Source: Trichodelitschia bisporula (lineage: Eukaryota). Taken from it: a DNA stretch of 64,000 bases. The first letter of the stretch is position 1. Each line of letters starts with the position of its first letter. The notes under the pieces are model-generated. The model made no database searches, was not told where the DNA came from, and worked only from the letters and a program-made list of their open reading frames with translations. The stretch covers positions 390,691-454,690 of the forward strand of contig ML996689.1 in assembly GCA_010356995.1 (NCBI GenBank). The letters run 5' to 3'. The position numbers were made by a program, and so were the translations under genes. Shown here one piece after another: positions 37,656 through 62,004 of this stretch.

Positions 37656-39005
37656 ATGTCTCGCCGTCTTGTCCGCCGCGCACCGCTCTCGGAGCGCATC
37701 CAAGCCTACCTCAACCCCTTCGATTTCCTGCTCTGGCTCTCCGAAGAACTCAACTCCGATGATTGGGGAGAGTCAAAGAAGTGGATGAGCGTCCCGATCG
37801 GCTTTGGACTCAATTTTATCTTCCTGGCTGCGCGCGCCAACAGCGGCCTGTCGTCCGGTGCAGATGATGTGTTTGGGGAAAGCTACGGATCAAGCGGCTG
37901 GTTCTCCTGGTTTTGCGCCTTTGTGGTACACGCTCTGGCCATCTCCTCCATAGTCAACGCGGGATACACGTTTACGCGCAAGCGGTACTACCGCTTCTTC
38001 GAGAGCTCAGTCGAACAGATCCCCCCAACGCCTTCTGCGCGCCGTGTCCGCGTCGACTCGTCGCCTTCCTCCCCACTACACTTCATCTCCAAGTATGTCT
38101 CTTCGAGTTCGGCACAGTCCCGAGCTCATCCGGATGCTGCTCGCGACGTTATTGAGCTCGGGATCTGGGATCCGTCACATTTGTGTCTCCGCCTCTTCTG
38201 TCTCTTCAGCCCGGGTCACGTCTTCATCTACTGGCTGTTCCTACCCCTCTCACCGCTGGATCCCAGTCCAACATTGACTATCATCAAAACCATCCTCCTG
38301 ACCAGTCTTCTCTCGGTACAGAGCTATGCGTTCCAGAGCTTCTTCACTCAACAAACCCATGACAAGCTTCTGCTGAACAAAGAAGTTCTCCACGAATACG
38401 ACACCAAATTCGTGCGGCCGACGCTGAACCGGCCTGTGCGCGACGTTGGAGTCCAGACACCCAGCAGCCGCGGAACCCCGGTGAAGAAGACCTCAGAAGT
38501 TGATATTTACACCCCTCACACGATTGTCAACCGTGGCTTCACCACTCGGCCAAACCCGGCGTACGCTTCGCAGTACGATCCTGACAACCTTATGCATCGT
38601 CCGACGAACCCTCGTCCAATGACCACGCCTGTGGCCAAGCCCCGGCTGTCTGATGCATACACCTCGTCCTCGACGACAACGGGCGGAGAATTTGCTTCCC
38701 CGAACCATGTTCCGCTACAGCAGCCCAAATTCCCTACGCCGCATCCTCATGCGGGAGATGGCGGTAGTCTGGGAGTGTACACACATGCCGCATCGCCACT
38801 GCGCAAAGCCGCATCATCGAACTTTCTCCGTCAGCCTGCTGAAGATACCCCGAGGACGAGGGGAACCAGCCCTCTAAAGAGAGTTAGCACACCTGCGGGC
38901 TTTGCGGATATACAGAATGGGGTGGCTGGAAGTTCGGGAACGACGCTGAATCAGAGGCTCTTGAAACTGAGAGGTGAGGGACGACGACAGAGCGGTGGGA
39001 TATAG
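37656..39005 (+). CDS. Nuclear rim protein Nur1/Mug154 family
   Basis: MSRRLVRRAPLSERIQAYLNPFDFLLWLSEE, RYYRFFE...TPSARRV, LFCLFSPGHV and KEVLHEYDTKFVRP. Confidence 0.85.
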   Translation: MSRRLVRRAPLSERIQAYLNPFDFLLWLSEELNSDDWGESKKWMSVPIGFGLNFIFLAARANSGLSSGADDVFGESYGSSGWFSWFCAFVVHALAISSIVNAGYTFTRKRYYRFFESSVEQIPPTPSARRVRVDSSPSSPLHFISKYVSSSSAQSRAHPDAARDVIELGIWDPSHLCLRLFCLFSPGHVFIYWLFLPLSPLDPSPTLTIIKTILLTSLLSVQSYAFQSFFTQQTHDKLLLNKEVLHEYDTKFVRPTLNRPVRDVGVQTPSSRGTPVKKTSEVDIYTPHTIVNRGFTTRPNPAYASQYDPDNLMHRPTNPRPMTTPVAKPRLSDAYTSSSTTTGGEFASPNHVPLQQPKFPTPHPHAGDGGSLGVYTHAASPLRKAASSNFLRQPAEDTPRTRGTSPLKRVSTPAGFADIQNGVAGSSGTTLNQRLLKLRGEGRRQSGGI

Positions 39006-40717
39006 CCTACTCGTCTACTTAATGTAATAACATAGTTTTAAGCTTAATACCACCCGAGTTGTTCGTTGATGTCTCATTCCAGGTCAACAAGATGACCATC
39101 AAATCCGAACCCCGCCTCCCCGGACTTCAAGCCATGCTCCACGAGCGCCGCTGTCTCACTGACGATGTCATACTGACGAGGTCCTTTCTACCACCATCGT
39201 TTGTCGAAACTGGCGTGGCTGTCGGTAGGTATGGCTCGAAGTCGGTATTTGAGCTGTCCAATCAAATCGTGCACTTACATCCCTGCGACGATATTGCCTT
39301 CAACATTGAAGCGTCGGACGACCGCAGCTTTACGAATAGCTCGATCCCCACGCAATAAATGCGCTTAGAGGAGCTAGATATGCACTTACATGAGAGCCTC
39401 AACCCCTTCGCACGTGGCGGAACGCAAGCCGGAGCGGGAAGTTGCCATTCACCGAATCGATGCCCATGGCAGCACATCCCGCGCGGCGAAGCGCCTGGCG
39501 CTTAAGCAGGCGCAGTCGTCTACGGCACCAAAGGAAAGGCATTCGGAAACGACGAGATGAGCTTGAATGGGCCGCGGGTGCACTCCGCAGATATTAATCT
39601 CTCGCAGCGCTTCGCCGTGTCCTTGACATTCTGACTGTTACTACGTGCATAAGACTGGCGGCTGGTGACGCGAGGCTGGTGACTCCCAAACAACGTCACC
39701 GCGACCACATATCCTTGATATCAGTCGTAACAGGGACGGGATTCTGAAAACATCGGACGGATGTGGCTGCCGACGCTTGGTTTGAGTTGCCGGATGACGC
39801 GAAAGGACTTGAAGCCGTTTTCATTCAAGGTTGGAGCAGTAAAGCTCAAACGCGAACAAAGGCGACCCCTCTTGACTTCCTCGGAAGATGGCGGCAATTC
39901 AGGAGCTTTAAATAGCCGGAGTCGTACGTCATGGTTCCCGCGCACACCTCCAGGCGAAGTCCATGATGTTTCTCTCGGCTGTTAACACCGTGGCCAAGGA
40001 TCGCGTAATCACGGGACCTGGTGCTCCAACCTCCGTTGTTCTTGCCATTTCAACCCTTTGCTAACTTCACACACGGTCGCTTTGAGTCTCTGCTATCATC
40101 CTCATTCTATCACGGAACCTGAACTCCTCGCGAACTTTCTTGAACCTCAATCCAGGCATCTTCGGGTGCGAACTCATGGCACAGTCTACTGAAATATCCA
40201 AATGACGGGGCGCACAACCTTCAAAAGCACAGTTAGAGGAACCAAAAAAATTCCCAGGCCTTCCTTGCATGTTTCAAGTCGCGGAAAGCCAGTCAGTATC
40301 TGGCTGTTGGCCGTCAAAGGCCGGGCGCCAACAGGATGAAACTCCCCGAAGGCTATGCCGCCCCGGCGCTTAGCAGGCCGGACCTCCCTTGAGCCTCCTT
40401 CGGTTCCTGGTTGACAGCATCGATCTACAACGGCTGCTGCATCCAGCTGCGCCTCGCTGCGGTATCTTTCTTTTTCCCACTTGCGCCGCTGAATCCGGCA
40501 TTACGCGCTCTCCATGGCCCACCCATGTAGCGGCCGCTGTCGCTTGAGGCGCTCGTAAGCGCGGTTCCGACGCAAATGATATGCTCCGTACCGGCTTGCA
40601 GCGGTAATATTCATATTCACTCTGGCCCCATGGATGACCTGAGCAGGTGCTCTGAAATCCACTTTCTTTCACTGTTGTCGATTTTCATCCACAATTTCAT
40701 CGGGTCCCGGACACCCA

Positions 40718-42828
40718 ATGAACGCCCCAAAAATACATCAGGAGCCGGTCCCTCAAACTGCAAATATCGGCAACTCTCAAGACCATGATGAAAACTTCAC
40801 CAAAGAAGTGGAACCTCATAGTCACTTTCGGAATGCATTTCTGCGCAAGTACGGAACGGCCGATACCGACCTTGAGAGCAACTTCAAGAGAGCCGAGTCT
40901 GGAGCGTCAAAACTCTCCGTTGTCGGCGGACAAACTCATCGTTGGAGCGTGCTGTCAAGGTTGATAGTTGACTGGTGGCTTTGGGAGCTCTTGAGCTGGG
41001 TCATTGGCGCGCTTTCCTTTTGTGGGATCGCGCTCATTCTCGGCTATTTCGACAACCGGACTCTTTCCTCCAAAGGGCTCTTAGGCATAACGATCAATGC
41101 CTACATCTCAGTTCTTTCTGCTATTGGGAAATTCGCTCTTGCTGTACCGGTGGAGGAGGCATTGGGACAACTGAAGTGGTTATGGTTTTCGGCTGGACAA
41201 CCCCGGAAGCTCATCGACTTCGAGCGATTCGACGGCGCGAGCCGGGGTCCGTGGGGATCTTTCATGTTTCTTTTGCACATGAAAGGCCGGTAAGTTGACG
41301 GTGTGGAGCTTATGCTTGCTTTGAATAACATTTTCGAAGGTCCTTTGCCTCGCTAGGCGCGATTGTAACGTTGCTCTCACTTACCCTCGATCCCTTTTTC
41401 CAACAAGTGGTTACATTCCCGCAACGCCCGAGCATATACGGAAGGAGTATGCTGACACGGGTTGTGAGGTTCAACCCCATGGACGCCGTTACTCAGGATG
41501 CCACGGACCACAATACGACGATTATTTCTCCCGACGGTCGCTTGGACGAGGCTATTGGACCGTATTTCTTAGGTAATCCATCCGTGCCGCCGGTCAACAG
41601 CTTTTGTCCGTCAGGGACGTGTACGTGGCCCAAGTTCGATACTCTTGCATTGTGCGGAGCCTGCGAGGATATTGGAAACCTCCTTACTTTTGATTGTCTC
41701 TACGAATCCGGAGATTGGCGGTCCGATCAAAGTTCGTACCTCAACAGCTCTTATGGTGTTACGTGGGTCGACGCCAAGGGTAACCCTACCTCGAAAACAC
41801 CGGCAGGAATGTCCTGTGGCTATTTTCTTAATGCCACCAGCGACAATCCCATCATGATGACCGGGTATGCTCTTTCTTCAAACAATTCCGCCTCGAAGAC
41901 GGTCGGCCAAGGGCTGCTTATGCGTCAACTTCCACTCCGACATGGACTCTCAACGGAGACAAAATGGGGCGGGTCCATTCATTTTCCAAACACCAGTCAG
42001 CCCATAATCGATTTCATCACTGTTGCTACGGAAGACGGGACTTCAGTCTACGCCAACAAAACCCCAGTCGCCCACGAATGCATGCTGCAATGGTGCGTCA
42101 AAACTATTGCGGCCTCCTCTTCAAATGGGGAGTATAAGGAAGAAGTTGTTTCAACCTTCGTGGATGGCTCCGGGCCTCTGGATGGCTGGCATCCGTTCTT
42201 CAGAGATGGGATCGTCAGGCAACACTATTCCCTGAACGTCACCTTGACCCCGCCTGGTCAAAATGACACTTTCTGGGTCTCAAACTTGACCATGTTCCAG
42301 CAGATGGTCCTATTCAATCTTGCTCTCCCAAGCTACTTGACAGTGGATGATCCCTCCACTACTCCAATCCTTCGGTATTCCAACATCCTCCGGAACTATC
42401 CGGCCTTGAAGAAGACACCCAATGACCCGTGGCTGCCTCCCACCAACATTAGTCAACATTTTGAAAACATGGCCACGAGCATGGACCGAGCTCTGCGGTC
42501 ATATCCTAATACGACAGAGAAGGTTTTCGGCACTGGAAGTTTTGAGACGTACGTCCACATTCGATGGGCATGGCTCACCTTACCATTCATCGTCCTGCTT
42601 TTGAGCTCTTTGTTCCTTTTTGTAACTATCCTAGAGAGCTGTCGGCGGAGAGATGTGGGCATCTGGAAGACTTCTTCGTTGGCAACATTGGCATATGGGC
42701 TTTCGGATGATGCGAAGGACGAGCTTGGCTCGTCCCGGAGTATGCTGGAGCTGATAGAGAAGGCCAATGGGATGGAAGTGTCGGCCATGCCAGGGGAAAA
42801 TGCGAGGCTGACCCCAAAGTTTAAATGA
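40718..42828 (+). CDS. DUF3176-family membrane protein, paralog A
   Basis: WWLWELLS, EALGQLKWLWF, DFERFDGASRGPWGS, LDPFFQQ, CPSGTCTW and C-terminal TM with IWKTSSLATL. Phase-2 intron 41290-41339. Confidence 0.85.
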
Positions 42829-43924
42829 ATAGATCTACTTGTACCATATCTGGAGGCTTAATACTCAATATCACCATCATCATCAAGAAAGCACCTGAGA
42901 TAATGCCTACGGAGGTTCCTCTCGTGCTCTGCAAAAAAATTCAACTGGCTTTTTGTACACTCAGAGCGACGGATTTGGGACTCACAACGGACAAAAACAT
43001 GCGCAATCTACTGTACCCAAGACCAAATCCCTTTACGCAATGCAAAGATATAGAATGATTTGACTTTCGCACTGGAGAATACGATTGCAGACCCTGAAGA
43101 TCAAATCTTAATCCAACAGTTTCTCTTTGTTGGCGCGGCTCTTCTTGATTAACTTCCCACAATTGAAGATCGAGGACTCACGTGGTTGTGACTTCCACTT
43201 CAAGTACCGTATACGCGCGCATGAGCTGATCCCCACCTTCCTCCCAGCCTGCGCTGCCACGTGCTGCTTCATGAGCCGCAATGTTTCCGAACATCAACCT
43301 GAAACGCGAAACGACGGCCTGAAAAGGGCGGGACTTCCCTGTAACACGTATGACAGTTTGATGGATAGTCGTGTTGGATCGATCAGCGCTTAACGCGCAG
43401 CTGTCGGAAGGCGCCTGCTGGAAGCTGATTCGGCTTGCTGGCCAGTGCACCGCTGAGCCGCATCCGCTGCGCTTGGAACGTGATTTTCATTCGCCGAACG
43501 CGCCCAGGCTGCAGGGTAATTGTCCATAATTAGTGAGCCGACCTATTTCCTTTCCTGGCTGTTTTATGTTTCAAACGCCCACCTTCACTTGATCCGAATT
43601 CCGATGCATCATGCTCCATTGATAGAAATGCCCGGTAGGGCAGTGTGGGCCACCATGCGGTGCACTCCGTACATATGGCCCGAGCAATCGAAGGCGATTG
43701 ATGTGTAGTTGAGATTTTGGTCCTTTCCATCGGTTTTTCTTTCTCGGTTTTCATGGCATGGTGAGTACCTCGAAATCCCTCTGGCCAAGAGAGACAGTGA
43801 GTACTAACGCGAAGAACAGCCAATATTAATACTTTCTCCGCACTCTCATGATTTTTTCCTTGTCACCTGTAACCTGTTGGTCAGATTCATTAGTTCCCGC
43901 TCGTACATCCCCCTCAACCATTTC

Positions 43925-46145
43925 ATGTCGACCGGTGTGAACGACGGATCTGGGTTCCAACCTACCGTCGGCCGTTATGCAGGACATAACGGTCCCTATC
44001 TTCAGACTACTCCTCAGCTCCCCCGTCTTCCACCTCTCCCAGTCCCTCAGGAGCCAGCTCTCACGTTGAGCCGACACCATCTGTTCGGACCGACTCGGGA
44101 GAGGCTTGCCGTTCCCGCCCCCGATCATGCAACGACCCTGCCACCTCCCAGTTCCCCACATTACCGACAGCAAGGATGGCCGGCCCGGGAATTCCAGTTC
44201 TTGGGCAACACTACCAATGCTATTCCCTATTCCCAGCGTTACAATCCGGTTTCGAGCCCCCCCCCGCGATCGACTCGGTTGGTGCAGGGCATCCGACGGT
44301 TCGTCATCAAGTACATCGTGGAATGGTGGTTGTTGGAAATCCTCAGCTGGATTTTCAGTGCGCTATGCATGAGTGCCATTTTTGGCGTCTTGTTGTACTA
44401 TGCTGGGCGCAAGATTCCCAATTGGCCGCTTGGTATTACAATCAATGGCTTCATTTCCGTCTTTTCAGGTCTTGCGAAGGCCGCTTTGTTACTGCCGACA
44501 GCAGAGGCCTTGGGTCAACTGAAATGGAATTGGTTTCGTGACGGCAAGAGACCCATGATTGATTTTGAAAGAATCGACATGGCAAGCAGAGGACCGTGGG
44601 GTGCCTTCATTCTCCTGGGGCGGATGAGAGGAATGTACGTATCCGGCTCTGACACCATAGGCCCGGTTGAAGTGCTGACCTCTGATTTTGAATAGGACTC
44701 TCCCCTCGATTGGCGCCGCCATCGTGCTCCTGGCCCCTCCGCTAGACATTTTCTTCCAACAAATGGTGTCATACCCATCAGCGTTCGTTCCGGGGCCTAC
44801 CAATGGCACGATCTCTCGAGTCCTCGCGTATGATCCTCTAGATGGAGTGAACTTCAGGAACGGCGTCAAAAAAATCCTTCCGCCTCGAGACTACTCCTTC
44901 GCGGAACAACTGCTCTTCACCAACGGCAGCGCTTTGGAGCCGAATTTCAATTGCCCAACAAGCAACTGCACCTGGGAGCCATTCGAGACCCTAGGTGTTT
45001 GCAGCAAATGCGCCGACGTATCCCAGGACGTGTACTTTCGATGTCAAAATGGAACCGGGGAGTGGATGAGCAACGTTTCATCCACGGATCCGTATCCAAA
45101 TGTGGCAATGTGTGGATACTTTCTGAACCTTCCGAAAAGCCCACCAGTGTTTCTCAGTGGCTACGCTGTTGACGCCAGTGGAAAGCCGGGAGAGGCTATG
45201 TCCACACAGATCCTGTCGTTCTCCAACACATCCTCGCGGCTCCCGCTGTATGGAGGATCCATGCGCTTCAAGTATGTCCGGAGTCCAATCTGGGATCTGC
45301 TAGTGTCAGGGACGCCTGGAGGGATTGCTGGTGCGTATGGGGCCGTAAAGCCAGAAGTGAATGAATGCATATTCTACTTCTGCGCAAAAACGGTCCAATC
45401 CGGAGCGTACTGGGGACGCCTGAGTGAGAATGTCGCTAAAGAAGTTCCCTTGGATGCTTCGGAACCATATCCATGGATCGTCGTGGATCCAGTAAAGAAT
45501 CTTGTGCGATACCTGGCCGAATTTAACTTGGAACTTCCTTCGCATGGAGACCAAGCAGCGCTCCAGAACAACACGTTTTTCGTCTCCAACCTGACGGCTG
45601 TGAAAACTGCCTTGCTCATCGATGAAATTGCACCTTCTTATGTCACTGCACTGAACGCGTCAGTAGCCCCGCTTCTGAAGTACGACAATGCCTTAAGGTT
45701 TGGAGGATCTCTCATTGAGGCCAACCCACAAACCAATCCTTGGATGCCGCCGAACAACATTACCGCACATGCCGAACGCCTGGCCGCGACTTTAACATCG
45801 ACCTTTCGGAACACAAGAGAAGGAGAGGGTGATGTGGAAATGGTGTTGGGGATTGCCTGGGAAGAGAAAACGTTCATCAGCTTCAGATGGGTTTGGTTCA
45901 TCATGCCTGTTGCGCTGTTATTTTTTAGTCTCATATTCCTTGTCGCAACGGTCATTCGGAGCTCTCGGGATGAACCAGATGTCGGGATTTTGAAAACTTC
46001 GACAATAGCCGTTCTTTTCAATGGACTGGGCAAGGATGTGCAGGAAGAAGTGAGACCGAATTGTCCGATAAGTGAAGTGAAGGCTCGGGCCCGGGAATTG
46101 AAGGTGACATTGCGGGCTTCAGGAATTTCGACGCCGGGGCTCTAG
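43925..46145 (+). CDS. DUF3176-family membrane protein, paralog B
   Basis: WWLLEILS, EALGQLKWNWF, DFERIDMASRGPWGA, LDIFFQQ, CPTSNCTW and C-terminal TM with ILKTSTIAVL. Phase-2 intron 44635-44695 at the same position as in paralog A. Confidence 0.85.
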
Positions 46146-46830
46146 GCGCTTGTTGTGTGTAGAGTGCAGGGTGGCAGCCATATTTTTGACTTTAGACATT
46201 AGAGCGGAGTATCCGGGCTCTTCAGGCGAGGTACACGGTTTGGGTCATGGGCAGGCTCGACGGAGAGCTCTGGATAGTTAATAATTATGACTGATGAATG
46301 ATGAACGAGAATTGGGATCACACAAGTTAGCTTTTTCGGACAAAGTGATCATGGTAGAATGACATACCTCATGACATGGGAGTAAAACACCTTCGCAATC
46401 CACATCGTGATTGCGAATGAAGACGCAAAGCAAGGCAGCGCACGGAACTAGGTCACGCTTGGGATCAGTAGAAGCAGAACGAGGCAGCTGGAAGCTGGGA
46501 TTGCCGGCAATGTTGGTGAGCCAGGTTTCACTTCCGGAACAGAACGTGGACGTTTGGGACGAAGGCGTGATGAATTCCCAGAACCCAATCCTATCGTACA
46601 AAAGACTCCAAAAACGGCCTTGTAGTCCCGAGTGAAGAAATCTGCTACCCGATCGAGGGCGGAGAAGGTGATGGAAAAGGAATAGGAAGCCAATTAACGG
46701 GCGTGGAAGCCGGCTCAGCACACTACGAATACGCGTTCTGTCAAAGATTAGTAAGAGGTACGGCGCATCGGCAATAGGGGGTCAGGCATACCTCTCTTTC
46801 AGCCTCAATTGCACCCCATCGTTGAGCATC

Positions 46831-47776
46831 TCATTCCTGATCAAGCGCTCTTTTACCGACTAGAGGCAGGTTAGCGCACAGAATTCGAAGGGCACGGCGG
46901 CAACTGACATCCTTGACCATCCTGACCCTGAGCAAGACCACGCTTCCCGACTTGGGGTCCCGTTAGCATCGGACATTCCGAGGGGCTGGAAACTCGCTTA
47001 CAGCCTTGCCCATCTTGCCCCTGTGCAAGTGAGCGCTTTCCGACTAGGAGCGCCGTTAGCATCAGAAACTTGGAGGGGCTGGAACCTGCTTACAGCCTTG
47101 ACCATCTTGACCCTGAGCAAGACCACGCTTCCCGACTTGGATCCCGTTAGCACCAGACATGTCGAGGGGCTGGAACTTGCTTACAGCCCTGACCATCTTG
47201 ACCTTGAGCAAGACCACGCTTCCCGACTTGGGTCCCATTAGCACCAGACATGTCGAGGGGCCGGAACTTGCTTACAGCCTTGACCATCTTGACCTTGAGC
47301 AAGACCCCGCTTCCCAACTTCGGGCGCCGTTAGCATCATGGAGCCGAAGGGCTGAAACCTCGCTTACAGCCTTGACCATCTTGACCTTGATCAAGACCTC
47401 GCTTCCCGACTTTGGGTCCCATTAGCAACAGACATTTCGAAGGCTGGAAAGTCACTTACAGCCTTGTCCATCTTGCCCCTGCGTAAGAGAGCGCTTCCCA
47501 ACTGAAGCATCCCGTTAACGTTGAGCACTATAATGGCCTCGATAGCCTACAGCCTTGACCGTCCTGCCCTTGGGCTAGACCCCGCTTCTCCCCTGAGACT
47601 CTGGTCAGTGTCCTCCATTAAGAGGGATAATGGGACGGCCTACAGGATATACCATTATCGGGGTTAGAAAGGAGATCCCGCGTAACGACGGGGGCGATGG
47701 TACTTGGGACCGGAGCCGCAAAAGCGGAGGATGCAAAAAACGCGGAAAGAACGACAACAACAGCTGAGAAGCGCAT
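46831..47776 (-). CDS. Secreted Kex2-processed repeat protein (KEP; peptide precursor), 165 aa, 10 exons
   Basis: Exons: 47776-47644, 47592-47551, 47501-47460, 47409-47368, 47317-47276, 47226-47185, 47135-47094, 47043-47002, 46950-46909, 46859-46831. All nine introns are 49-51 nt GT...AG with a branch-like site. Spliced product: MRFSAVVVVLSAFFASSAFAAPVPSTIAPVVTRDLLSNPDNGISWEKR-([G/S]L[A/T/D]QGQDGQGFGKR)x8-ALDQE*. Confidence 0.88.
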
Positions 47777-49637
47777 ATTGATAGTGAGAAATGGAGCACA
47801 GTAAGTTTTTCAAAGTTCAATGAATGTGGAGGTCCGACCAGCGGCTGTATCAAGTTCTAGCTTGAGGATGAGTTGATAGGCGAGTAAATTGCTTGCTCTT
47901 GGATAGTCTAGACACAGAAGCGGTACCTTGAAAGTTTATACCTTCAATTCCATGGTGTTGGTAGCCCACACGCCGGCCCAGGAGAATCACCGCATGGAGA
48001 AAACATCGATCTGACTCCAAAAACAGCATCACCTGCTTCATCAACCGCTCGCCTGCACTCATGATGCAATCCTTCCTACCACAGCGTCTACATACACCAC
48101 TTCAGATTCGCCGGTGGACCTGTCACTGTCTCTCCACGCGCGTCCAGTCGGGTAACCACCAGCGATAGCCGCCAGAGGAGTCAACGCCGCGTCGAAGAGC
48201 CGCAAGAATCGACTCCGTACGTGGAGGCGTAGCACCATCCGCCGCACTAGACGCCGTGGAGAACACGGCACCTCTCCGGAAGACCAGAAAACGGCTCTTA
48301 GGGCTGCACTTATTCGCCGCCATGCATCGAGACTCGCCGCTCGAAACGGCCGCCGCCGGTTACGCAAGGCTCGATGCCCATTCGGGAGGGGGATCATTGG
48401 GCGAGGGGCATTGGGACGCGTCAATGTGAAATGAGAGTGATGTCTTGCTCGGGTGTACCGTACGTGCGATGTGCTCCACCCCGGTAACAGGCTAGGTTCG
48501 GGTGTTCCTTGCAGTAGGCGTCGTGAGCAACGGCGCTTATTGGCATGATTTGCATAGCGGCTGCAGAAGTGTGGCCTCAGTGGGCATGCAGCAGTCTGCG
48601 GACCCAACCCCGCATACCCCGGTCACCCGCTGAACGCTCGCGCATGAACACCAGGGCCAGGTCCGAAGGTAGGGATCTGGACGGGCAGCGTCCAAGAACT
48701 GCAGAGGACATGGAGGGGGTTGAAACTCTTAGTTGATTATGATCCTGGATTCCATGTTCGGCTGGTCGTGTGCACTGGTGTTTGGGAACCTCTCATGTGA
48801 TGGTTACAGTGGAAGTGGAAGCCATAGGTGCAAGCGCAGCCGGTGGCGGTGCGTTAGGTTCAATTTTCCCGCTGGGGCTGCACTTCGGGAAAGCCTTCAA
48901 GCCATGGCTTGCCTTGAGCATCTGGAATTCCATAGAGCCGAGCGCGACGCGCCGTGCGGGGTTATCACTTTTCGTTCGTGGGGGCAGCCGACAGTCGCAC
49001 ATACATCCAAACTTCGTAGAGCCAATACAGCCGAAAAGGACCTACTCGTCTCTAGTTAGCCGAAGGATATTGTAAGGGGAATGGCACTCAGAGAGCAGCA
49101 ATTGGACTGGGAGTGGTGAGGAGTGGTGAGAAGTTCAGTCAGTCGTGGTTTGATTAAGGGAAGGGGGGGTCTCATCCCATCCAATCACCAGGCGCGGGAC
49201 CCTTGGCTTGGCTGCAACTTCCCGCCGCCCGCAGCGCGCGGGTCTACCTCGTCAACCAACGAGATGCGCCACAAGGCTTTGGGCGAGAATGCTCCAATGG
49301 ACAAGGCCAAATCCCTCTAAGGACTGGATGGAATGCGTACCACCATCGCAAGTATACCCTCTTCGCGCATGAAGGATACACTGTAGCTCTAGTCATATGA
49401 CGCTAATCGCGAAATCCGTGAATAGATTGTGTCGGCTGTTCTGTGTGAAGCAGGCCTGATTCACCCGGCTGTTTGGCAGAGAGTGGCCCGACGCGATCCG
49501 AGTTTGAAACGAGACTCTCTTTTCAGCGAGAGCCTTGCTGCTTGCTGGGTAACACAGCAGCAGCGTCTTTTTTTCTTGCAGTGCCGCATCCTGTGCCTGC
49601 ATTGTGTGACTTCTTCACGCCTTTCGTGAGGTTGACC

Positions 49638-50162
49638 ATGTCATCCGGAGTCATCGCAACACCCGGCATCTTTGGCTTCCCCCGTTGGAAACACAAGAAA
49701 CCGGCCACCCTCAAACCCGCCACTCGACTTCCGCCAAAAGACGAGGTTGGTCTGACGCTTTGCCGCCACCCAGCGTGCTGCCAGTTATTCGACCCCGCAT
49801 CGCCCGCAAACGTCGACTTCTACGCGCACTCGACACACGGGCATCTGCCGCCGCGGCACCTGTGCCCGGCGCACGCCTTGCTCGCGCAGGACCGTGCCGC
49901 GAGCGCACACATCAGCCGGAGCAGCATCGCCAGCTCGAGCACAGAGGACAGTGTGGGAGACGAAGGCGGCGGCGAGGTCGCCTGCAACATGCCCTTCTAC
50001 TTCAGGCCAGTGGAAGCAGATGTGCGGTGGCGGACCGCGCGATCCGCAAGCTCGGTGGCCAGCGTGCGCGGCGATGCACCCAGCGCGATGCGCGAGAGTG
50101 ATGGTGGAGGCATGAGCGCGGGGCCCGTGAAGCGCACGGCCAGCCTCGCCAATCCGCCGTGA
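49638..50162 (+). CDS. Small hypothetical protein with possible Cys/His metal-binding motif
   Basis: ORF from MSSGVIATPG with coding-like GC3 bias. Contains CRHPACC...HLCPAH. Confidence 0.4.
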   Translation: MSSGVIATPGIFGFPRWKHKKPATLKPATRLPPKDEVGLTLCRHPACCQLFDPASPANVDFYAHSTHGHLPPRHLCPAHALLAQDRAASAHISRSSIASSSTEDSVGDEGGGEVACNMPFYFRPVEADVRWRTARSASSVASVRGDAPSAMRESDGGGMSAGPVKRTASLANPP

Positions 50163-51172
50163 CACCTCCCTCCGCACCATGGCGGGTACGAAGGTACCTA
50201 CGCGACGGAGGATCGCCGACGCTTGTGACCCCGCATCCTTCGGGCGTGCCCGCGATGGAGAGCAGAGCTTTCACCACCGGCGGAGAGAAAGACCGTCAAC
50301 CGCGGGGTTGCGGGGTACTTCTCCCTTTTGTGTGCATATCGGACCATCGACACCAATCGCTCTCAAGGCAGATTTCTGGTCGCCGGGGGGAGAGCTTCTG
50401 CGACAGTACCTGGTCGACAGCATTATGCTGGTGCGTAGGGCCTGGATCCGAACGCCATCGCGTCATTATCATGCCGAAGCAAGACAGCATAGTCGAGCTG
50501 CGAAGCTTTGTCCACTTCTGCTGCTTATGGTGGGGTTCTGATGGTCGGGTGGTGGTGTAGCGGTACGAGCTGAGTACGGAATTAGGCGCTGGGAAATGAA
50601 CTCGGCGGTTTCGAGACATTGAGCGTGACGCCGGAGGGGGTCGGCCGTGAGCGGGGACAGGCGGGGACGACGGGGGAACAGGCGGCTGGATAGAGCTAAC
50701 AATCAGTCGCTTGAACAATACAATAATCAAAGCATTCAGGGCTAGGACCAAGGGACAGGTTCATCTCACACTTTGATTGTTCTTCGAGCGCAAAGTACGC
50801 GCAAACCCCTCCTTCATCCCTCACTGCTGCATATTGCCCATGATGTCATGTGACTTAAGCGCTGACAACAACTGACCGAATCATTGATCGAACCATGCAA
50901 GGACCATCACCCGTCATTCTCAAGTTCGAAAGCTCTTGTTCATGAACTCTGTTGAAGTGGTCCATGAGACCGAAAGAGCAGTGCTCAAATGCATCCTGAT
51001 GGGTATCCCCTCTATATATTGACCACCAGGCCTCCAGCCCTACGGCTGCATGCACAGCCATTCCAAAAATACGATTTCTACAACGCATCGCGGTATGGAT
51101 CTCGGACAATGCCTCACCGTCTGCTGCGGCGGACATATCTGCCTAAACCATAGCCTACTCCGTTCTTGCGGT

Positions 51173-52909
51173 TCAGTTGGCCCCGCTGTTCTTCTTCGCC
51201 TTTACCAGCCATGCCAGAAGGTCGACCTTCGTAACCACGGCAACAGCCTTCAGGGCTCCACCAGCCTCCTGCTCTGTGACAACCGCTGCGCTGTTCCACT
51301 CGAAGAACCGGCTCAGCGCGCTAAGCGGAGTGTCACGCGTGATCTCGACGAACTTTCTCCGCTTCGGCCGCGCCGCATTATCCGTGAGCACCGATGAGAT
51401 TTCCTGGCCCTTGGGAGCGACAAGCCCAATGCTCGTAGGGTCCGTCACCTTTTCCGACAGCCGCGTGAAGTCAAACATAACGCTGCTGACTGGGTCGCTG
51501 GGATTGGCCCGACCCCTGCTGATGTAGCTGAGCAAGTTGCCGAGCGTAACAAGCCCGACGAGCTTTTGGGACGGCGAAGACACCGGCAGCTGGTCAAAGC
51601 CCTTGTCACGCATGGTTTCGATGGCTTCAGAGCAGGGCGAGGTCGAGGAAATGGTGGTGACGGGCTTGAGGCGGAGCGACGCAATGGTGGCGCCAGCGAA
51701 CGGATCCTTGGGCCGCAGGGTCGGCGAAGACGGCTCCGTAGGCGTGTCGGGGAGGCTTGCCGGGAGGAGGTCGTTTGCAGCCAGCCAGTCGTCGTCCACG
51801 AACTGCCTTGGTTAGCGGGCGACCGTAGACAGACAATACACTGACCTTGCTCAGGTAATTCCGGATGCTGTCAGGGCAAACGATAACCACGACATCACCC
51901 TTACCCAGTCCCAGGTCCTTCACCGCCTTCACCATCGCCGCAAAGGCGCTGCCGCTGCTTCCGCCAACAAGCAGACCCTCTTCAGAGATCAGCCTCCGGG
52001 CGTATGTAAACGACTCCCGGTCATCGGTCTTGTACCACTTGTCTACGACCTTCTGCTCAAGGACCTCCGGAATGAAATCGTAGCCAATGCCTTCGACCTT
52101 ATAGGCTTCATTTTCGTGCTCTTTGTTCAGGGATTCTGGAACTGCGAGAATGCTCCCCTGCGGATCAGCGGCTATAATCTTGATGTTCGGATTATGTTTC
52201 CGCAGTCCTTTGGCAATTCCGGTCACCGTGCCACCAGTCCCAGCTCCCGCAACGAGCACATTGACTTTGCCGCCGGTTTGCTCCCAGATTTCTTCTGCCG
52301 TACCTAGCTCGTGTGCAAGCGGATTGTTGGGATTGGCATACTGGTCCAGGATGTGGGCATTGGGAAGTTCCTTCTCGAGACGTCTCGCAACGCCAATATG
52401 TGATTCCGGAGCGTCATAAGCCGCGGCGGTGGGGGTACGGATGATCTCGGCGTTAAGAGCACGCAGGACCGCAACCTTTTCAGCAGACATCTTCTCAGGA
52501 AGTGTGATGATCATCCTGTAGCCTGAACTGTCAGCGTGAGCGGCAATACAAGGCCATGTCTAAGCTACCTTTCACGGCGGCTACAAGCGCCATGCCGATC
52601 CCTCTGCTTGACGTTAGATGTGTTCGGTGCCGGAGACTCATATGCCTACGTGTTCCCGCTCGTCGGCTCGATCAAGGTGTCGCCGGGCTTTATTCTGCCT
52701 TCCTTCTCGGCCTCTTCGATCATGCGGAGAGCAATGCGGTCTTTCACGCTGCCACCGGCATTGAACAGCTCGAGTTTGGCATAGACAGTCGCCTCAATGC
52801 CTAAGCTCTGCGGCAGCTTGTTCAGCCGAACCATGGGCGTGTTGCCGATTTGCTCGAGGATGGACTGCATGAGTACGGGAGGGATTGCGGGACGCGTTTT
52901 AGAAGCCAT
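51173..52909 (-). CDS. CYS4: Cystathionine beta-synthase
   Basis: [13 protein letters not shown]-lysine motif [26 protein letters not shown] and EGIGYDFIP, followed by a C-terminal CBS pair ([15 protein letters not shown]). Three introns. Confidence 0.95.
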
Positions 52910-53404
52910 GATGAAAGACGGCAATAATGGCAACGGGTTGTTCTCGTCCGTCTACTTGCACAATCACAAACTTGCTGGTCAAAATAGGTTGAAGAAGTCC
53001 ACGGTACGGAGGGGCGAACTGGTAGTCGTCTTTTGAAGTCGGCCGGCTGTGGCTTGACGTGATGTGAGCGGGTGGCGTACTAGCGACAGGGCACAGGGCT
53101 CAGCCGCTGAACCGTTCACCTTGTCCGAGGGTACCCGCTTCCGTTTTTGGAACTTTTTGCCTGACCCGTGACCCTAGCTCAAATGTGGAGTGATTCAGGC
53201 AAGCAGGCATCACATCCGAACTGAGCGGCCGGCATCAAGGCATACATCAGGCAGAAACCCACGTTTTCCGGCGTCGCATCTAGGGGACCGGGGGATGCGC
53301 ATTGTACGCGTCGCCGGCGTCCAAAATCGCCGCAACCCATTCCCTGCGAATATCAGCTTCTACATCCTTCAGCGCTTCGCAGCGTGTCCACTCTTTCAGT
53401 AGCA

Positions 53405-56400
53405 ATGGCGCGGCTCGGGCGCCTGGGCTTCCTCGCCATTGCCGTTGTCTTCCATCTCATCTATGTCTACTCCATCTTTGACATCTACTTTGTGAGCCCC
53501 ATCGTGAGGGGGATGCGCGAGCACAGTGTTGCGACCGCAGAGGCTCCAGCGAAACGGTTGGTGTTATATGTTGGTCAGTAGCTTAGCGCATCAAATGACA
53601 ACTCAGTCCGAATAATTGTCCTGATTGAACTGTGCAGGAGATGGCCTCCGCGCCGACAAGGCCTTCCAGTCCTTCCCTGACCCGTCACCCGCCGAGAATG
53701 ACCCCGATGCGCCCACTCCCCGACCGCTGATGCCCTTTCTGCGCTCAAAGGTGCTCCGTGAGGGGACTTTTGGCGTGTCTCATACCCGTGTACCTACCGA
53801 ATCTCGGCCGGGCCATGTCGCGCTCATTGCCGGTCTCTACGAGGACGTCTCTGCTGTCACCACCGGCTGGAAGCTGAACCCTGTCAACTTCGATAGCGTG
53901 TTCAATCGCAGCCGACATACATGGAGCTGGGGAAGCCCGGATATCCTGCCTATGTTCCAGCAGGGTGCGGTGCCGGGCCGGGTGGATGCGTACACATATG
54001 GCCACGAGGCGGAGGACTTTACCGCCGACGCAGTCGATCTTGACATCTGGGTTTTTGACCACGTAAAGGCCCTCTTCGAAAGCGCAAAGACCAACGCCAC
54101 GCTGGATGCCGCACTTCGCGAGGACAAAGTTGTGTTCTTCCTCCACCTACTGGGACTGGACACTACCGGCCATTCATATCGGCCCTACTCGAAAGAGTAC
54201 CTCCACAACATCAAAATCGTGGATAAGGGGGTTCAGGAAATAACCGAGCTCATGGAAGAGTTCTATGGCGATGGGAAAACGGCATATGTGTTCACTGCGG
54301 ACCACGGCATGAGCGACTGGGGAAGCCATGGGGACGGCCATCCAGACAACACGCGCACGCCATTGATAGCATGGGGCTCCGGAGTTGCTCCTCCAGTTAC
54401 AAAGTCCAGGGGTATCGCGGCGGGGCACGAAGATGGGTTTTCTGCTGACTGGGGCCTTGACCATGTCCAGAGGAATGACGTTGCACAAGCCGACGTTGCG
54501 GCGCTTATGGCGTATCTCGCTGGGCTTGCGTTCCCAGTCAACTCTGTCGGAGAGCTGCCACTGGCCTACCTTGCAGCTACTTCGAAAGCAAAGGCCGAGG
54601 CGCTGCTTGTCAATGCCCGTGGGATGCTTGAGATGTACCACGTGAAGGAAGAGCAGAAGAAAAGCACTGAGCTCCGGTATAGGCCGTACCCAGGCTTCGC
54701 GGATGAACAGAATTCCGTCGAGCATCGCATTGCGCAGATCGAGAAGTTGGTCAAGAAGAGCCGTTCGAAGGAGGCCATCGCGCAATGCAATGAGCTCATT
54801 CAGCTCACGCTCCAGGGGCTCCGGTACCTCCAGACATATGATTGGTTGTTCCTCCGGGCGCTGGTTACGGCGGGCTTTTTGGGATGGATAGCCTATGCCA
54901 TCACTACCGTCGCCGACCTTCACGTGCTTCATGGGACGGCCGCCCCCCAGCGGAGCCTTTTCAGCAACATCTTTTTCTCTTCAATTCTTGTGGCACTGTA
55001 CTCGCTGCTCTATGTTCAGCAATCGTCGTGGACGTACTACGCCTATGCCATCTTCCCAGTGTTCTTCTGGGAAGAGGTTTTTGTTCGCCGCGGCGCCCTG
55101 AAGCAAGGAAAAGATGTACTTTTTGGCCATGTTACTTCGGTCGGTGGCTACATTGGGATGATATTCAAGGCATTGGCGTTTCTGGGCCTGCTCGAGGCAT
55201 TGGTAAGCGATGAGCGCACTGGTTAGCATATGCTGATGTCGTCCAGGTTCAAAGCTACCATCATCGGGAAGTCTACACAGTGTGCTATCTCCTCGCGATC
55301 ATGTGGCCGGCGCTTTATGGGATGAACTTCGTCAAGGAGAACAAGCTCCTCATACTCGCATGGAGCCTCTCCTGCGCTTCTATGAGCGTGTTCACTCTCC
55401 TGCCCGCCTTAAAGGTGGAGGACTTGAACATGGTGTAAGCACGGTGCATCTTCGCATTGCTAAATACTAATATATCCAGGCTCGTTGGTGGCGGCTTGAT
55501 GTTCGCTGTTGGAGTCCTCTACCTCATCTTCGAAGAGAGCATCGTGCAACAAGCGAGGTCTGCCAGTGTGGCGGGTACTTCCACCCTCATGACTCCCTAC
55601 TCTTCCACGATTGTCGGCATTCAGGTACGTCTTTTTGCATCGCATGAATCGCGCTTACAAATTAGCTCGGCCTAATAATCCTGGCCATGATCACGACCCA
55701 CTCGAGCATCACGTCCCTCCAAGCACGACAGGGTCTCCCACTCGGCACGCAAATCGTCGGATGGGCCGTCCTCGTCTTATCCCTGGCGGTGCCCTTCCTC
55801 CACGGCCTGGACCCGAACAAACACTATCTCCACCGCCTGCTCGTCATCTTCCTCGCCTTTGCACCTATTTTCATCATCCTCACCATCTCCTACGAGGGCC
55901 TCTTCTACTTCGCCTACTGCATCACCCTCCTCACCTGGGTACGCCTCGAGCACCACATCTACACCTACACCTCCACATCGAAGCCCTCCCCCTCACCGCC
56001 AACTGCCGAGCTAAACCCGCTCAAGCCCGCCCTCGCCGCCGCAAAATCGCGTATTGAGAACATCAAAGAAAACAAGTTCCGCGCCCTCACCCTCACCGAC
56101 GCACGCATCAGTCTTTTCTCCTTCTTCCTCCTACAATCCGCCTTCTTCAGCACCGGCAACATCGCCTCCATCTCCTCCTTCTCCCTCGACGCCGTCTACC
56201 GGCTCATCCCCATTTTCGACCCTTTCGCACAGGGCGCGTTGCTAATGTTTAAGATCCTCGTCCCCTTCGCTGTGCTCAGCGCTAACCTCGGCATCCTGAA
56301 TCGGCGCCTCGGCGTCGCGCCTTCCGCGCTGTTCATGATCCTCATGGCCGTGGGCGATGTGATGACGATATCGTTTTTCTGGATGGTGCGCGATGAGGGC

Positions 56401-56601
56401 AGTTGGCTCGACATTGGGACGAGTATTAGTCACTTTTGCATTGCCAGTGGGTTGTGTGTGTTTGTTGCGGGGTTGGAGGTTGTGAGCGAGGTGTTTGTTA
56501 GTGGGGTAGAGTTTGAGGAGGCAAAAACGGAGGTTGAGGAAAAGGGTGGGCACGACAAAGTTCATAATGGGTCGGTGGACGTGGATGAGGTGAAGACCTA
56601 G
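53405..56601 (+). CDS. MCD4: GPI ethanolamine phosphate transferase 1 (PIG-N)
   Basis: SIFDIYFVSP, VGDGLRADK, RVPTESRPGHVA, LHLLGLDTTGH, FTADHGM, GLRYLQTYDW, FSTGNIASISSF and EGSWLDIGTSISHF. Four introns. Confidence 0.95.
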
Positions 56602-58747: not shown

Positions 58748-60188
58748 CTAGTACCCGTGTGGATTTAACAAGTCGCGGATCTTCCGAGCGGCCTGAGTGT
58801 GCACACCCTCTCTGACCCTAAGGTCATCGCGAAGCAATAGCCACGGTACCACATTTCGAACCGCCCCACTCTGATCCGGGTTGCTGAACAAGTCTGATTG
58901 CAAAAGCCTTAGAAGACGATCCCTTGGAAATCTTTTGACGTCATCGACTACGTTCTGCATATTCGGTACCATAACTTTGTTGCTTAAGCAGCCTGTATAG
59001 ACAAAGTCTAGGACCAGTGCGGCAATGGCAGCAGCGATAGGTGTTGATACCGAAGTTCCCCGGCATCGCCGCTGCATAGTTCCTCGGGTCTCGTCCACGG
59101 GCCACATGGATAGAACTTCTTCTCCTAACGCCGATATCTGGTTTGGTAGGTGGGTGTTGGGACAGAAGCTGGAAGTTGTGCCATCTCCATTCGCGGATTT
59201 GACACATATGACGGACGGAATAGAAGCGGGGAATGTGATTGAGCGTCCGTTCGTCCCGTGGTTCGCCGCAGCGGCAAAAACTACCGTCTTCGGGTGCTCG
59301 TTGAGCGCAACTTCGAGGGCGACGTCGGGGCAATCGAAGCCGAGCGACATGCTGATGATGTCCGCTTTCCAAGCTCTAGTGGCATAATGTATTGCCTGCA
59401 CTCTCGTAAGCCAAGTAGGGATAAGGCAAATATTCACGTACGCAGGCCACAACGTCCGGATCCGCTTCACGAGTATTTGGGGGGGTAACTTTGGCGATGA
59501 AGACGTCGGCTTCAGGAGCGATCTGAAACACCAAGCCAGCACAATAGGTCCCGTGGCCGTCGATATCTCTATAGCCCGAACATTCATCAAAGTTGCCATT
59601 GCAGTCAGTCCATGGTGGTTCCTCATGCAAATTGCCCTCTTCGTCAAAAGACATCGCTCCTTTGAGCCGCTGCCCCCAGTTCTTCCCATAGGGCTCTGGG
59701 CGAAGGAACGGATGGCGTCCGTCAATTCCCGTGTCGAGGATGACGACTCTTATGTTTCGTATATTTGAGCGGGGAAGGCCCTTCATGAAGCGATGCGTGC
59801 TGGGCAGTTTCCAGAAGGCGTGGAACCAGTCATCGCTTGAAGCGGCGACCCTGTCATACTGTGGGCATAATGGAGGATCGGGGATCGAGGATACACATAC
59901 GGGTCCTGTACATTCGACCCTGCACTGTCGGCACTTCCAACATGACCTCCTCGTAGCATGAGTGGCAAAGGTTGGGCGTAGGGGAGGTGAAACAACAGAT
60001 GTGATAGAACGATATTGGCCTTCAGAGGCTTGAGGCAATGCGCCGCGGGGAGGGGGGCGTCAGGTTGAGGTGGGACAGATGTCTACCGTTCGAGTGCGGG
60101 GTCTGATGAGGACGGATAAAGCGCTTCGTCGATGAGGAAGCTCCGCGTCGAAGCTGCAGCGATGATCCAACTTGGCTGCAGTAGTCAT
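58748..60188 (-). CDS. Intracellular subtilisin-like serine protease (peptidase S8), HET-Q2-like; 5' exons uncertain
   Basis: Catalytic Asp (VVILDTGID), His (DIDGHGTYCAG), oxyanion Asn (FAAAANHG) and Ser (GTSVSTPIAA). Intron 59396-59441 joins two ORFs in frame. No signal peptide seen. A candidate ATG at 60188 needs two further introns. Confidence 0.85.
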
Positions 60189-60701
60189 ACCTATGACAGA
60201 CAATCTAATTAGTCCACGTCGACGCCGACACGGTTAGCCCGAGCTCTACTTACCTTCCTTTTCAGTCGGATATCACCGTATTCCTTTGGCACACCTGCGG
60301 TAAGGCTGAATGGTGAGGCCGAACCAATCATCCAAGGCTTACCCTTAGAGGACCTTGGCCACCCGCCCATTGCTTTTTCTGTGTGGCAGGCACATGACAT
60401 GAGTGGAAGGGAGTGCGACTTTCCGTTGGTGCTTGGCCTAACCTTCCAAGGTGGACGCGAGAAATGTTGGCTAAGGTGGGATCAAGCGGCGACTGGAAGC
60501 GTCCTAAACTCCCAAGATATTGAGGCGAAGTGCATGCGTTTAGGCTGCACTATGAGTAATAGAAGTCTGTAACTGGTTTGACAGTTGCAGAGAGGCTGCG
60601 CCTGGACGTCGGGGCAGATATGGGAGGTATTGTTCAATTTGAGTAGAGCGGAACAGCCTACGAAAGAGCCGCGCTACCTTAAATCAGTTGTAGCAGGGAA
60701 G

Positions 60702-60709
60702 TATAAATA
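60702..60709 (+). promoter_or_regulatory. Putative TATA box of the gasdermin gene
   Basis: TATAAATA lies 50 nt upstream of the ATG at 60752. Confidence 0.45.
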
Positions 60710-60751
60710 CACATCATTGAGAGAACAGCTTCCGTTGCATCCCTAACAATC

Positions 60752-61630
60752 ATGAAGAATCCCGTCAAGACTTACTATCTCGCTCCAAAGCTGGACTGGG
60801 CAGCAGTCGGCGGCCCGGTTCGACTTGGAAGCATCATTACGGGGCCTGCAAGGCCAGACCTGGCGGTGGACAAGAAGCCATTTGAGCTGCCCCAGCCGGT
60901 GAATTACTCAAAACTGGAAGCCTGGACGTACGAAGACTCAGGGAAGCGTAAGCTCCTCGCTGGACTCTTTTGCAGGTTTCTCGAGGCTACCATCGGCGTC
61001 GACTTCCACGCAAAATTGGAGCGAACACAAACTAAGCGATACCAATTCGACAGACTTGTGACCATGTCCATCACCCCGGATGTTGAATACGTCAAATCGA
61101 GGCTCGAGGACGATGGAGTCCGGGAACTTCTCGAAGCCAACAACAACAAGGCATACATCATCACAGGCCTCAAAATTGCCTGCAATCCCAGCGGTGCCAC
61201 GTCCACCTCCAGAATGACGGACACGAGATTGCGAGTCGGCGCCAACTTGGCTGCCGCGGGAGTGCCGTTAACCGTTGGCCCCGAACTCGAGGCATCCCAC
61301 TCAACGGAGCAGTCAACATCTTTCGTCGGCGGTACGGATATCATATTCGCATTCGAGATCCAAAAGATTCGGGTGAAGTGGTACAAGAACGGGAGGGCTG
61401 TTACGGTAACTCCACGTAACAAAGGGGCGTTTATGAGCCATCCGAACGGCGAAGATGACGGCAAGACTGGCGGCTCCGAGGATGAATTGACGCTAGAAGT
61501 CGCGGAGATCACATCTCCCAAGGTCGATGGAGGGGAGGAAGTGTTAGATGCAGTGGAAGGGGAATGTCAGGCGGTGAACTTGAGATCAATGGAGCCGTGG
61601 TGCTACATGAACTACCCGGCCGACTTGTGA
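60752..61630 (+). CDS. Fungal gasdermin (RCD-1/HET-Q1-like pore-forming cell-death protein)
   Basis: 292 aa. N-terminal YYLAP...GPVRLGSIITGPARP, YQFDRLVTMSITP, AYIITGLKIA, beta-rich Gly/Ser/Thr hairpin segments, DIIFAFEIQKI, KGAFM and an acidic C-terminal tail. Adjacent to an S8 protease. Confidence 0.85.
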   Translation: MKNPVKTYYLAPKLDWAAVGGPVRLGSIITGPARPDLAVDKKPFELPQPVNYSKLEAWTYEDSGKRKLLAGLFCRFLEATIGVDFHAKLERTQTKRYQFDRLVTMSITPDVEYVKSRLEDDGVRELLEANNNKAYIITGLKIACNPSGATSTSRMTDTRLRVGANLAAAGVPLTVGPELEASHSTEQSTSFVGGTDIIFAFEIQKIRVKWYKNGRAVTVTPRNKGAFMSHPNGEDDGKTGGSEDELTLEVAEITSPKVDGGEEVLDAVEGECQAVNLRSMEPWCYMNYPADL

Positions 61631-61677
61631 GCGGCTCGGTCGGCACTGTCATGCTCGACCCAGCAAGTTAGAGTCAT

Positions 61678-62004
61678 CTAGATGGCCGTGCTGTTTGTGC
61701 GGAAGGAGGCCTGGAAGAGCCTCCCAGTCTGGCTCATAGGATGCCGCTTTTCGGATTCGGTCCTCAATGGTAGTCGTAATAGCGCGTCTGGAATGATATG
61801 CTGTTTCCTAGGCTTGTACCGCACGTCCAAATTGAGTTGATGGGCCGGAATCTCTGGAGCAATCGACATCCAGATTCGCTTCTGTACACAGCGGCGAGAG
61901 ATCCTGGCAAAACACGATGGTCCTTTTGTTGGCGAGCGTTCGTCGTCAGAAGGTTCTCCGTCTCCACGAGGGTCCACTGTCCCGTGGTTGCACGGACGTC
62001 TCAA
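61678..62004 (-). mobile_element. Degenerate Ty3/gypsy pol (RNase H end) remnant
   Basis: LNLDVRYKPRKQHIIPDALLRLP resembles the gypsy RNase H C-terminal motif (I.Y.PGK.N..ADALSRL). No intact pol. Confidence 0.55.

Follow-up and report, generated by a model that had tools for sequence, protein, structure and literature searches.

The stretch of DNA considered here, referred to as the window, comprises 64,000 nucleotides of the Trichodelitschia bisporula genome (contig ML996689.1, positions 390,691 to 454,690 of the forward strand) and carries, on its minus strand at 46831..47776, a gene for a small precursor built of repeated peptides. The coding region extends from the ATG at 47776 to the stop codon ending at 46831 and consists of 10 exons and 9 introns, which once spliced give an open frame of 165 codons. 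A preliminary description of the locus, read from the sequence, had proposed nine short minus-strand introns and a clean frame of 165 amino acids (aa), and the spliced frame rebuilt from the coordinates reproduced this model exactly. A TATAAA box lies 159-164 nt 5′ of the ATG (47935..47940, minus strand); it was found by a script scan of 47777-48000, which revealed no ATG between the box and the start codon.

Exon 1 (47644..47776, 133 nt) encodes a hydrophobic leader of 20 residues (47717-47776) and most of a pro-region. It is followed by eight repeat exons, each of 42 nt. The first of them, R1 (47551..47592), carries the W-E-K-R end of the pro-region and peptide 1 up to G-Q-G, and the others are located at 47460..47501 (R2), 47368..47409 (R3), 47276..47317 (R4), 47185..47226 (R5), 47094..47135 (R6), 47002..47043 (R7), and 46909..46950 (R8). 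The last exon (46831..46859) supplies the 2 final bases of the F codon, the first base of which closes R8, and then G-K-R, a 5-residue tail, and the stop codon. All these exons are on the minus strand and were delimited by the spliced frame. The nine introns between them measure 49-51 nt. Their donors are GTAAGC or GTAAGT in six cases, GTAGGC in two, and GTCAGT in one, and each contains a branch motif (CTAAC, CTAAT, CTGAC, or TTAAC) whose A is placed 11-13 nt from the 3′ AG.

The repeat unit, made up of one 42-nt exon and one 49-51-nt intron, is 91-93 nt long and indivisible by three. Tandem Repeats Finder places the array at 46907-47503, with a period of 91 and 6.5 copies. The back-translated core motif has 8 matches in the 64-kb window, where 0.07 are expected, and none of 100 shuffles reaches 8. 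The eight repeat exons are without exception phase 1-1, which makes splicing obligatory for any reading frame, and because the unit length is not a multiple of three, the unspliced minus-strand stop-to-stop open reading frames (ORFs) within the array never exceed 72 aa. The expectation that annotation would miss the gene, its ORFs being fragmentary, agrees with this limit and with the lack of any matching protein in the collections searched (described below). On the opposite strand, two open frames of 125 and 102 aa (46864-47241 and 47117-47425, plus strand) have no family match and are most simply explained by the lack of stop codons in the repeat.

Four public sequencing runs cover the locus, and their contigs were compared over 46400-48100. 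Two of them, X1 and X2, are DNA runs, from which the assembly was probably built. The other two, X3 and X4, belong to a separate study, in which they share a single sample, and are classed as RNA by a software guess, their record being silent on this. In the contigs of both X3 and X4, introns 1 (47593..47643, 51 nt, GTAGGC..CTGAC..CAG), 2 (47502..47550, 49 nt), 3 (47410..47459, 50 nt), 4 (47318..47367, 50 nt), 5 (47227..47275, 49 nt), and 7 (47044..47093, 50 nt) are skipped exactly at the predicted borders, with 41 letters on the shorter side for introns 1 and 2 and 42 for the other four. Two further introns are skipped with just 26 letters on the far side, namely, intron 8 (46951..47001, 51 nt) in both runs and intron 6 (47136..47184, 49 nt) in X4, its placement in X3 being ambiguous. 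Every skip reads CT..AC on the plus strand, that is, GT..AG on the minus strand, and no differing letter besides the skips is listed between these contigs and the window. The DNA runs X1 and X2 contain no joint, keep the introns, and are colinear with the window.

The ambiguity in X3 has a simple origin. R6 and R8 are identical over their first 28 nt, and the 26 letters past intron 6 were placed on R8, which is listed as a skip of 234 nt; the shared 28 nt account for both this skip and the contig break points. Exon skipping, which the 234-nt skip might suggest, was rejected on the same ground. Contig depth is 44.8 (X3) and 22.3 (X4) for the contig covering R6-R7 and 727.6 and 279.8 for that covering exon 1 to R5, values which cannot rank the parts of the gene. 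At the other end, the X3/X4 contig reaches about 51505 if it is colinear, and the X1/X2 DNA contig (4479 nt) ends at about 51589, 84 nt further. The difference may be either another intron, of 84 nt, or merely an earlier stop of the contig.

Eight of the nine junctions that had been predicted are thus seen in one independent sample, likely RNA, whereas intron 9 (46860..46908, minus strand, 49 nt, GTCAGT..CTAAC..TAG) is uncovered and is predicted from sequence alone. The sequence argument for its splicing is good: its removal would recreate an in-frame F-G-K-R, and its retention would add 13 unrelated codons and then a stop (ORF 46871-47089). An RNA origin of X3 and X4 is preferred over an intron-free DNA allele. 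The latter is far less likely, as it requires eight exact intron losses with no other listed difference.

Further evidence is provided by the way in which the copies differ. The eight units and the last F-G-K-R were lined up codon by codon, and variants were counted by hand. Twelve amino-acid columns are invariant yet contain at least 17 synonymous codon variants. Over the whole line-up, about 20 variants are synonymous and 5 are replacements (binomial P 1.2e-8 at a neutral synonymous expectation of 0.25), and the replacements are confined to peptide positions 1 (G/S) and 3 (A/T/D) and to the first site (W-E for F-G). Judged by its codons, the peptide is under purifying selection, and the count bears out what the preliminary description had proposed for the invariant QGQDGQGFG.

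The introns have drifted further than the exons, with a mean pairwise identity of 0.69 against 0.82. Exon identity ranges from 0.69 to 0.95, whereas introns 1, 2, and 9 share 0.48-0.64 with every other intron, which is about the level of unrelated sequence; their length and splice signals are kept despite this drift. The youngest pair is formed by units 5 and 6, their introns being 0.94 identical and their exons 0.95. Drifted introns with preserved signals, together with exons that are still alike, indicate that the array is old and that each copy has been held separately. The gene has expanded by tandem duplication of a module of 91-93 nt, composed of one 42-nt exon and one intron of about 50 nt.

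These data also bear on the possibility that there is no gene at all. The locus would then be a noncoding 91-nt tandem repeat with a chance frame, and the X3/X4 contigs would be DNA of a strain with deletions. The guessed RNA status of these runs, a contig that is colinear with the genome far upstream, and the lack of a detected homologue would be compatible with such a view. It must explain, however, why eight deletions each start with GT and end with AG at borders predicted from the sequence, with no other differing letter listed, why synonymous variants exceed replacements by 20:5, and why diverged introns retain their length and signals. A start codon, a leader, a TATA box, and an in-frame stop are all present as well. 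A noncoding repeat is accordingly regarded as very improbable, and the gene is very probably real.

The encoded precursor consists of the 20-residue leader, a 28-residue pro-piece ending in W-E-K-R, eight 12-mers each followed by K-R, and the 5-residue tail ALDQE. Five of the 12-mers are GLAQGQDGQGFG, and one each starts with SLT, GLD, and SLA, so that the general form is [G/S]-L-[A/T/D]-QGQDGQGFG. The leader, the pro-region ending in WEKR, and the eight KR-separated peptides with their variants all match those listed earlier. In the leader, M-R is followed by 18 uncharged, mostly hydrophobic residues, with small residues at positions -3 and -1 (A-F-A|A-P). The Kyte-Doolittle means over 9 residues are 2.0-3.0 in its first 8 windows, a measure of hydropathy alone and not the output of a trained signal-peptide predictor. 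The mature part contains 39 G, 25 Q, and 12 D among 145 residues. Its repeated core has a single Phe per unit, no Trp, Cys, Pro, Tyr, or His, and a net negative charge.

This layout is that of the Kex2-processed repeat proteins (KEPs) of fungi. In the survey of Le Marquer et al. 2019 (PMC6339444; this and the other articles cited here are represented by the part of their text that was accessible), the KEP pipeline selects proteins that have a signal peptide, lack a membrane segment, and fall into four or more fragments with a repeated motif when cut at KR or RR. In the precursor, nine K-R sites give ten fragments on in-silico cutting, eight of which are near-identical units, and no hydrophobic run occurs beyond the leader, that is, in the pro-piece, the eight Gly/Gln-rich 14-mers, or the tail, as the absence of a transmembrane segment demands. 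The layout pointed out in the preliminary description, K-R-separated repeats behind a putative signal peptide, is present. By its architecture, the product is probably a KEP, encoded by a real spliced gene and releasing linear peptides. The KEPs of the two published catalogues, that of Le Marquer et al. and that of Umemura 2020 (PMC7329392), likewise join a short pro-region to near-identical short units ending in K-R and lack a membrane segment, and their signal peptide has a putative counterpart in the leader. Many catalogued members share with this gene a stand-alone sequence type without a DUF3328 neighbor. Unlike them, the gene described here needs nine splices, has a Gly/Gln-rich core with a single Phe, and matched no predicted protein in the searched collections.

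The processing would follow the route established for the alpha-factor, in which the precursor enters the secretory pathway, Kex2 cuts after K-R, Kex1 removes K-R, and the peptide is exocytosed (PMC6339444). The N-terminal leader would bring the precursor into the secretory pathway, and in the Golgi Kex2 would cleave after each of the nine K-R pairs. A Kex1-type carboxypeptidase would then trim the trailing K-R, and eight linear, unmodified 12-mers would leave the cell, where their most likely role would be that of a diffusible signal or of an extracellular peptide of another kind. Trimming by Ste13 is not expected, as the sites are not followed by X-A or X-P dipeptides.

A particular feature of the sites is that G-K-R follows all eight peptide copies. 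In animals, G-K-R is the classical context of amidation, and the preliminary description had considered this meaning for F-G-K-R. The gene would then encode an animal-style amidated peptide precursor, in which the Gly before K-R is converted to yield ...GQGF-NH2. Multicopy neuropeptide precursors of animals begin with a signal peptide, of which the leader seen here is a putative counterpart, and they resemble the precursor in that each of their short repeated peptides is followed by Gly and a dibasic site. Kex2 itself prefers a hydrophobic residue at P4. Both F-G-K-R and W-E-K-R have an aromatic residue in that position, which gives the conserved Phe a role without amidation. In this regard, F-G can equally be read as P4/P3 of a Kex2 site, and F-G before K-R would be part of the cut site and part of the peptide rather than an amidation signal. 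The only enzyme known for the amidation reaction, PAM, is described as “missing throughout the fungi” in the accessible text of PMC6529398. On that account, the likeness to neuropeptide precursors probably lies just in the convertase site; amidation is hardly credible as an explanation, and this part of the earlier proposal is not retained.

The layout is also that of mating pheromone precursors. Saccharomyces cerevisiae MFalpha1 and the alpha-pheromone precursors of Pezizomycotina share it, together with the presumed sequence of Kex2 and then Kex1 cleavage (PMC6339444), and the gene might accordingly be the alpha-factor-type pheromone precursor of this fungus. Against this, the units begin with G-L or S-L after K-R and lack the X-A or X-P of the Ste13 signature. 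Trp and Cys are absent from them, as are the PYGXPXG and PCW-type cores known from ascomycete alpha pheromones (PMC6339444, accessible text), and the number of introns is unusual. A pheromone function is therefore very unlikely. The same features (no X-A/X-P and a core without Tyr, Trp, or Cys) agree with the earlier remark that the peptide was not recognizable as any known pheromone or dikaritin.

Dikaritins deserve separate consideration, as the precursor could be that of a ribosomally synthesized and posttranslationally modified peptide (RiPP) whose cores are cyclized or otherwise modified by unlinked tailoring enzymes, in a dikaritin-like or a new class. A layout of signal plus KR repeats is common to all known dikaritin precursors, and the dikaritin/ustiloxin precursors UstA, AprA, and PhomA combine the KEP-type arrangement with an invariant repeated core, as found here (PMC7329392). 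An invariant core is also what would be expected of an enzyme substrate. The cores of ustiloxin, asperipin-2a, and phomopsin, however, carry a cross-linkable Tyr, whereas the core described here has no Tyr, Trp, Cys, or His. Tyr occurs in 65.6% of the repeated sequences of DUF3328-linked KEPs and is hence not universal (PMC7329392).

The surroundings of the gene were examined by comparing stop-to-stop ORFs with Pfam. The ORFs scanned were 104 of at least 130 aa over the whole window, 63 of 70-129 aa in 39000-53500, and 150 of the 161 of 80-129 aa elsewhere, the 11 left out lying in 60212-63938. No DUF3328/UstYa, tyrosinase, or methyltransferase match was obtained among these 104 + 63 + 150 ORFs of a window which reaches just 16 kb upstream of the gene. 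In the Umemura survey, a DUF3328 gene lies within 15 genes for 22% of 7878 KEP genes, the distance averaging 3.09 genes, and 78% are without one nearby (PMC7329392). The genes that flank the precursor are housekeeping genes or encode DUF3176 membrane proteins. In view of the empty scan and of a core without Tyr, Trp, or Cys, the RiPP option raised in the preliminary description is considered decidedly unlikely.

A further possibility concerns the fate of the peptides. The repellents derived from Rep1 of Ustilago maydis are the model for Kex2-released peptides that bind to the wall or self-assemble, and the Gly/Gln-rich peptides might likewise be structural surface material on the hyphal wall, or self-assembling, and not signals. 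The composition of the mature part given above is in line with such a function. G/Q-rich and G/N-rich repeats have been tied to amyloid-like behavior (PMC8786786), and the functions of KEPs are described as largely unknown (PMC9769878). Conversely, the 12-mer is short, has one aromatic residue, and carries a net negative charge, and nine contiguous residues are strictly kept in every copy, a pattern more easily explained by a recognizing partner than by bulk material. A structural role is thus considered improbable.

The favored reading remains that of a KEP from which linear 12-mers are released, and a number of observations weigh against it. The RNA nature of X3 and X4 is a software guess, and a single sample from a single study supplies the spliced form. 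The spliced contig of X3/X4 (4098 nt) continues past the promoter for about 3.4 kb upstream, an odd finding for the mRNA of such a small gene; overlapping neighboring transcripts, which may be the cause, are the sole candidate offered. No X3/X4 contig was found on 46400-46912, which includes intron 9, the last exon, and the 3′ untranslated region, a gap which proves nothing; a short 3′ tip may have been clipped in assembly. The signal peptide is a putative one, called from hydropathy. Kex2 cleavage and the release of a Gly/Gln-rich, acidic 12-mer are presumed from the sites. Finally, no homologue was detected in the proteins and metagenome contigs searched, so that conservation across species does not enter the argument.

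The searches behind this last point used as protein queries exon 1, the exon 1 read-through, and the 72-aa unspliced ORF with its two repeats. Exon 1 yielded no match at E <= 0.01 among 71 candidates from longer proteins, the exon 1 read-through none at E <= 0.1 among 13 candidates of similar length, and the 72-aa ORF none at E <= 0.1 among 487 candidates from longer proteins. Against 1.84 billion representatives, the 72-aa ORF gave two matches at E <= 0.001, both to unrelated repeat proteins without the motif, which were discarded. A DNA pattern combining the core motif with an intron donor was found at two metagenome loci, once in each, in nonrepetitive and apparently bacterial sequence; these were dismissed as chance matches. 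The blank protein searches are weak evidence, because the spliced protein was not among the queries, the collections hold only gene-caller predictions, and no fungal genome collection was covered. A KEP without relatives is, moreover, common, since 2560 of the 7878 KEPs in the Umemura survey are stand-alone and lack a homologue (PMC7329392).

In the literature searched, the motif string was not found, and no fungal precursor is described whose repeats each contain an intron. The accessible text of the two KEP catalogues (PMC6339444, PMC7329392) contains neither “intron” nor “exon,” and a third KEP paper mentions introns only for a cloning step. The nearest described design is an animal one, as the caerulein and magainin genes of Xenopus laevis also place one peptide on each exon. 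Those genes have long introns and duplicated exons with quasi-zero divergence, whereas the copies described here differ by many synonymous changes. The Xenopus peptide genes have no evolutionary relation to the fungal gene, and amidation is available in animals and reportedly not in fungi.

As regards the other genes of the window, two adjacent DUF3176 membrane-protein paralogues (40643-42825 and 43808-46142, plus strand, Pfam scan) lie downstream of the peptide gene and are convergent with it. The nearest Atlas clusters of one of them consist of hypothetical proteins of Ascomycota, an assignment which fits introns of 49-51 nt with CTAAC-type branch sites. No link between DUF3176 and KEPs was found, either in the accessible text of PMC7329392 (0 occurrences of the term) or elsewhere in the literature searched. 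On the upstream side, the Pfam scan identified a cystathionine beta-synthase-like gene with PALP and CBS domains (51176-52951) and a PigN/Mcd4-like gene (53625-56598). Between them and the peptide gene, about 3 kb at 48100-51150 contain many overlapping open frames on both strands with no Pfam match, and yet appear to fall within the X3/X4 contig; one or more unrecognized genes may be present there.

Still further upstream, a gene for a subtilisin-like S8 protease (58751-60059, minus strand, Pfam scan) is represented by two overlapping ORF pieces and probably contains an intron. This gene was considered as part of the peptide system and rejected. Its best solved relatives are bacterial-type subtilisins and not kexin, and no kexin P domain was seen. 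It lies 11 kb upstream of the peptide gene, and it was not counted in the system because housekeeping genes lie between the two.

Two features in the distal part of the window are recorded for completeness. At 10486-10798, in the interval flanked by an RTA1-like gene and a gene for a fungal transcription factor, six tandem units of 52 nt occur, each of which on the minus strand resembles a complete 46-nt intron (GTATGT ... CTGAC ... CAG) followed by ATAATT. The unit is confined to this array, as all five of its matches in the window fall inside it. Either a further case of tandem duplication that includes an intron or an introner-like sequence may be present here. At 281-3139 (minus strand), an ORF of 953 aa has PNP_UDP phosphorylase-like and NPHP3_N/NACHT NTPase domains and, by these domains, looks like a fungal NLR-type protein.

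Taken as a whole, the gene probably encodes a KEP, so far without detected relatives, and its distinctive trait is the presence of eight symmetric 42-nt exons, each carrying one peptide with its own intron. On present evidence, there is no neuropeptide-like or RiPP novelty at the protein level, and no new mechanism is involved, as the presumed processing is that of the known Kex2 pathway. The gene is a clean case of a protein-coding gene missed by ORF-based annotation and probably also by model-based annotation. Because KEP surveys start from predicted proteins, genes of this build may be under-counted. A possible screen would look for tandem repeats that have GT..CTAAC..AG within the unit and an exon part that is a multiple of three. 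The strongly conserved 12-mer, present in eight copies, also offers a target for peptidomics.

The exon-plus-intron module shows the number of introns rising by internal tandem duplication in a fungus, and it parallels the exons of frog skin peptides. A more far-reaching view, tentative and rather doubtful at present, is that the gene represents a hidden class of fungal precursors, in which each peptide is encoded by its own symmetric phase 1-1 exon of 42 nt, and that QGQDGQGFG is a new extracellular signal with a dedicated receptor. If this were true, unequal crossing-over or exon skipping would alter the number of peptides per precursor without breaking the frame, and gene predictors, and hence the KEP catalogues derived from predicted proteomes, would systematically miss the class.

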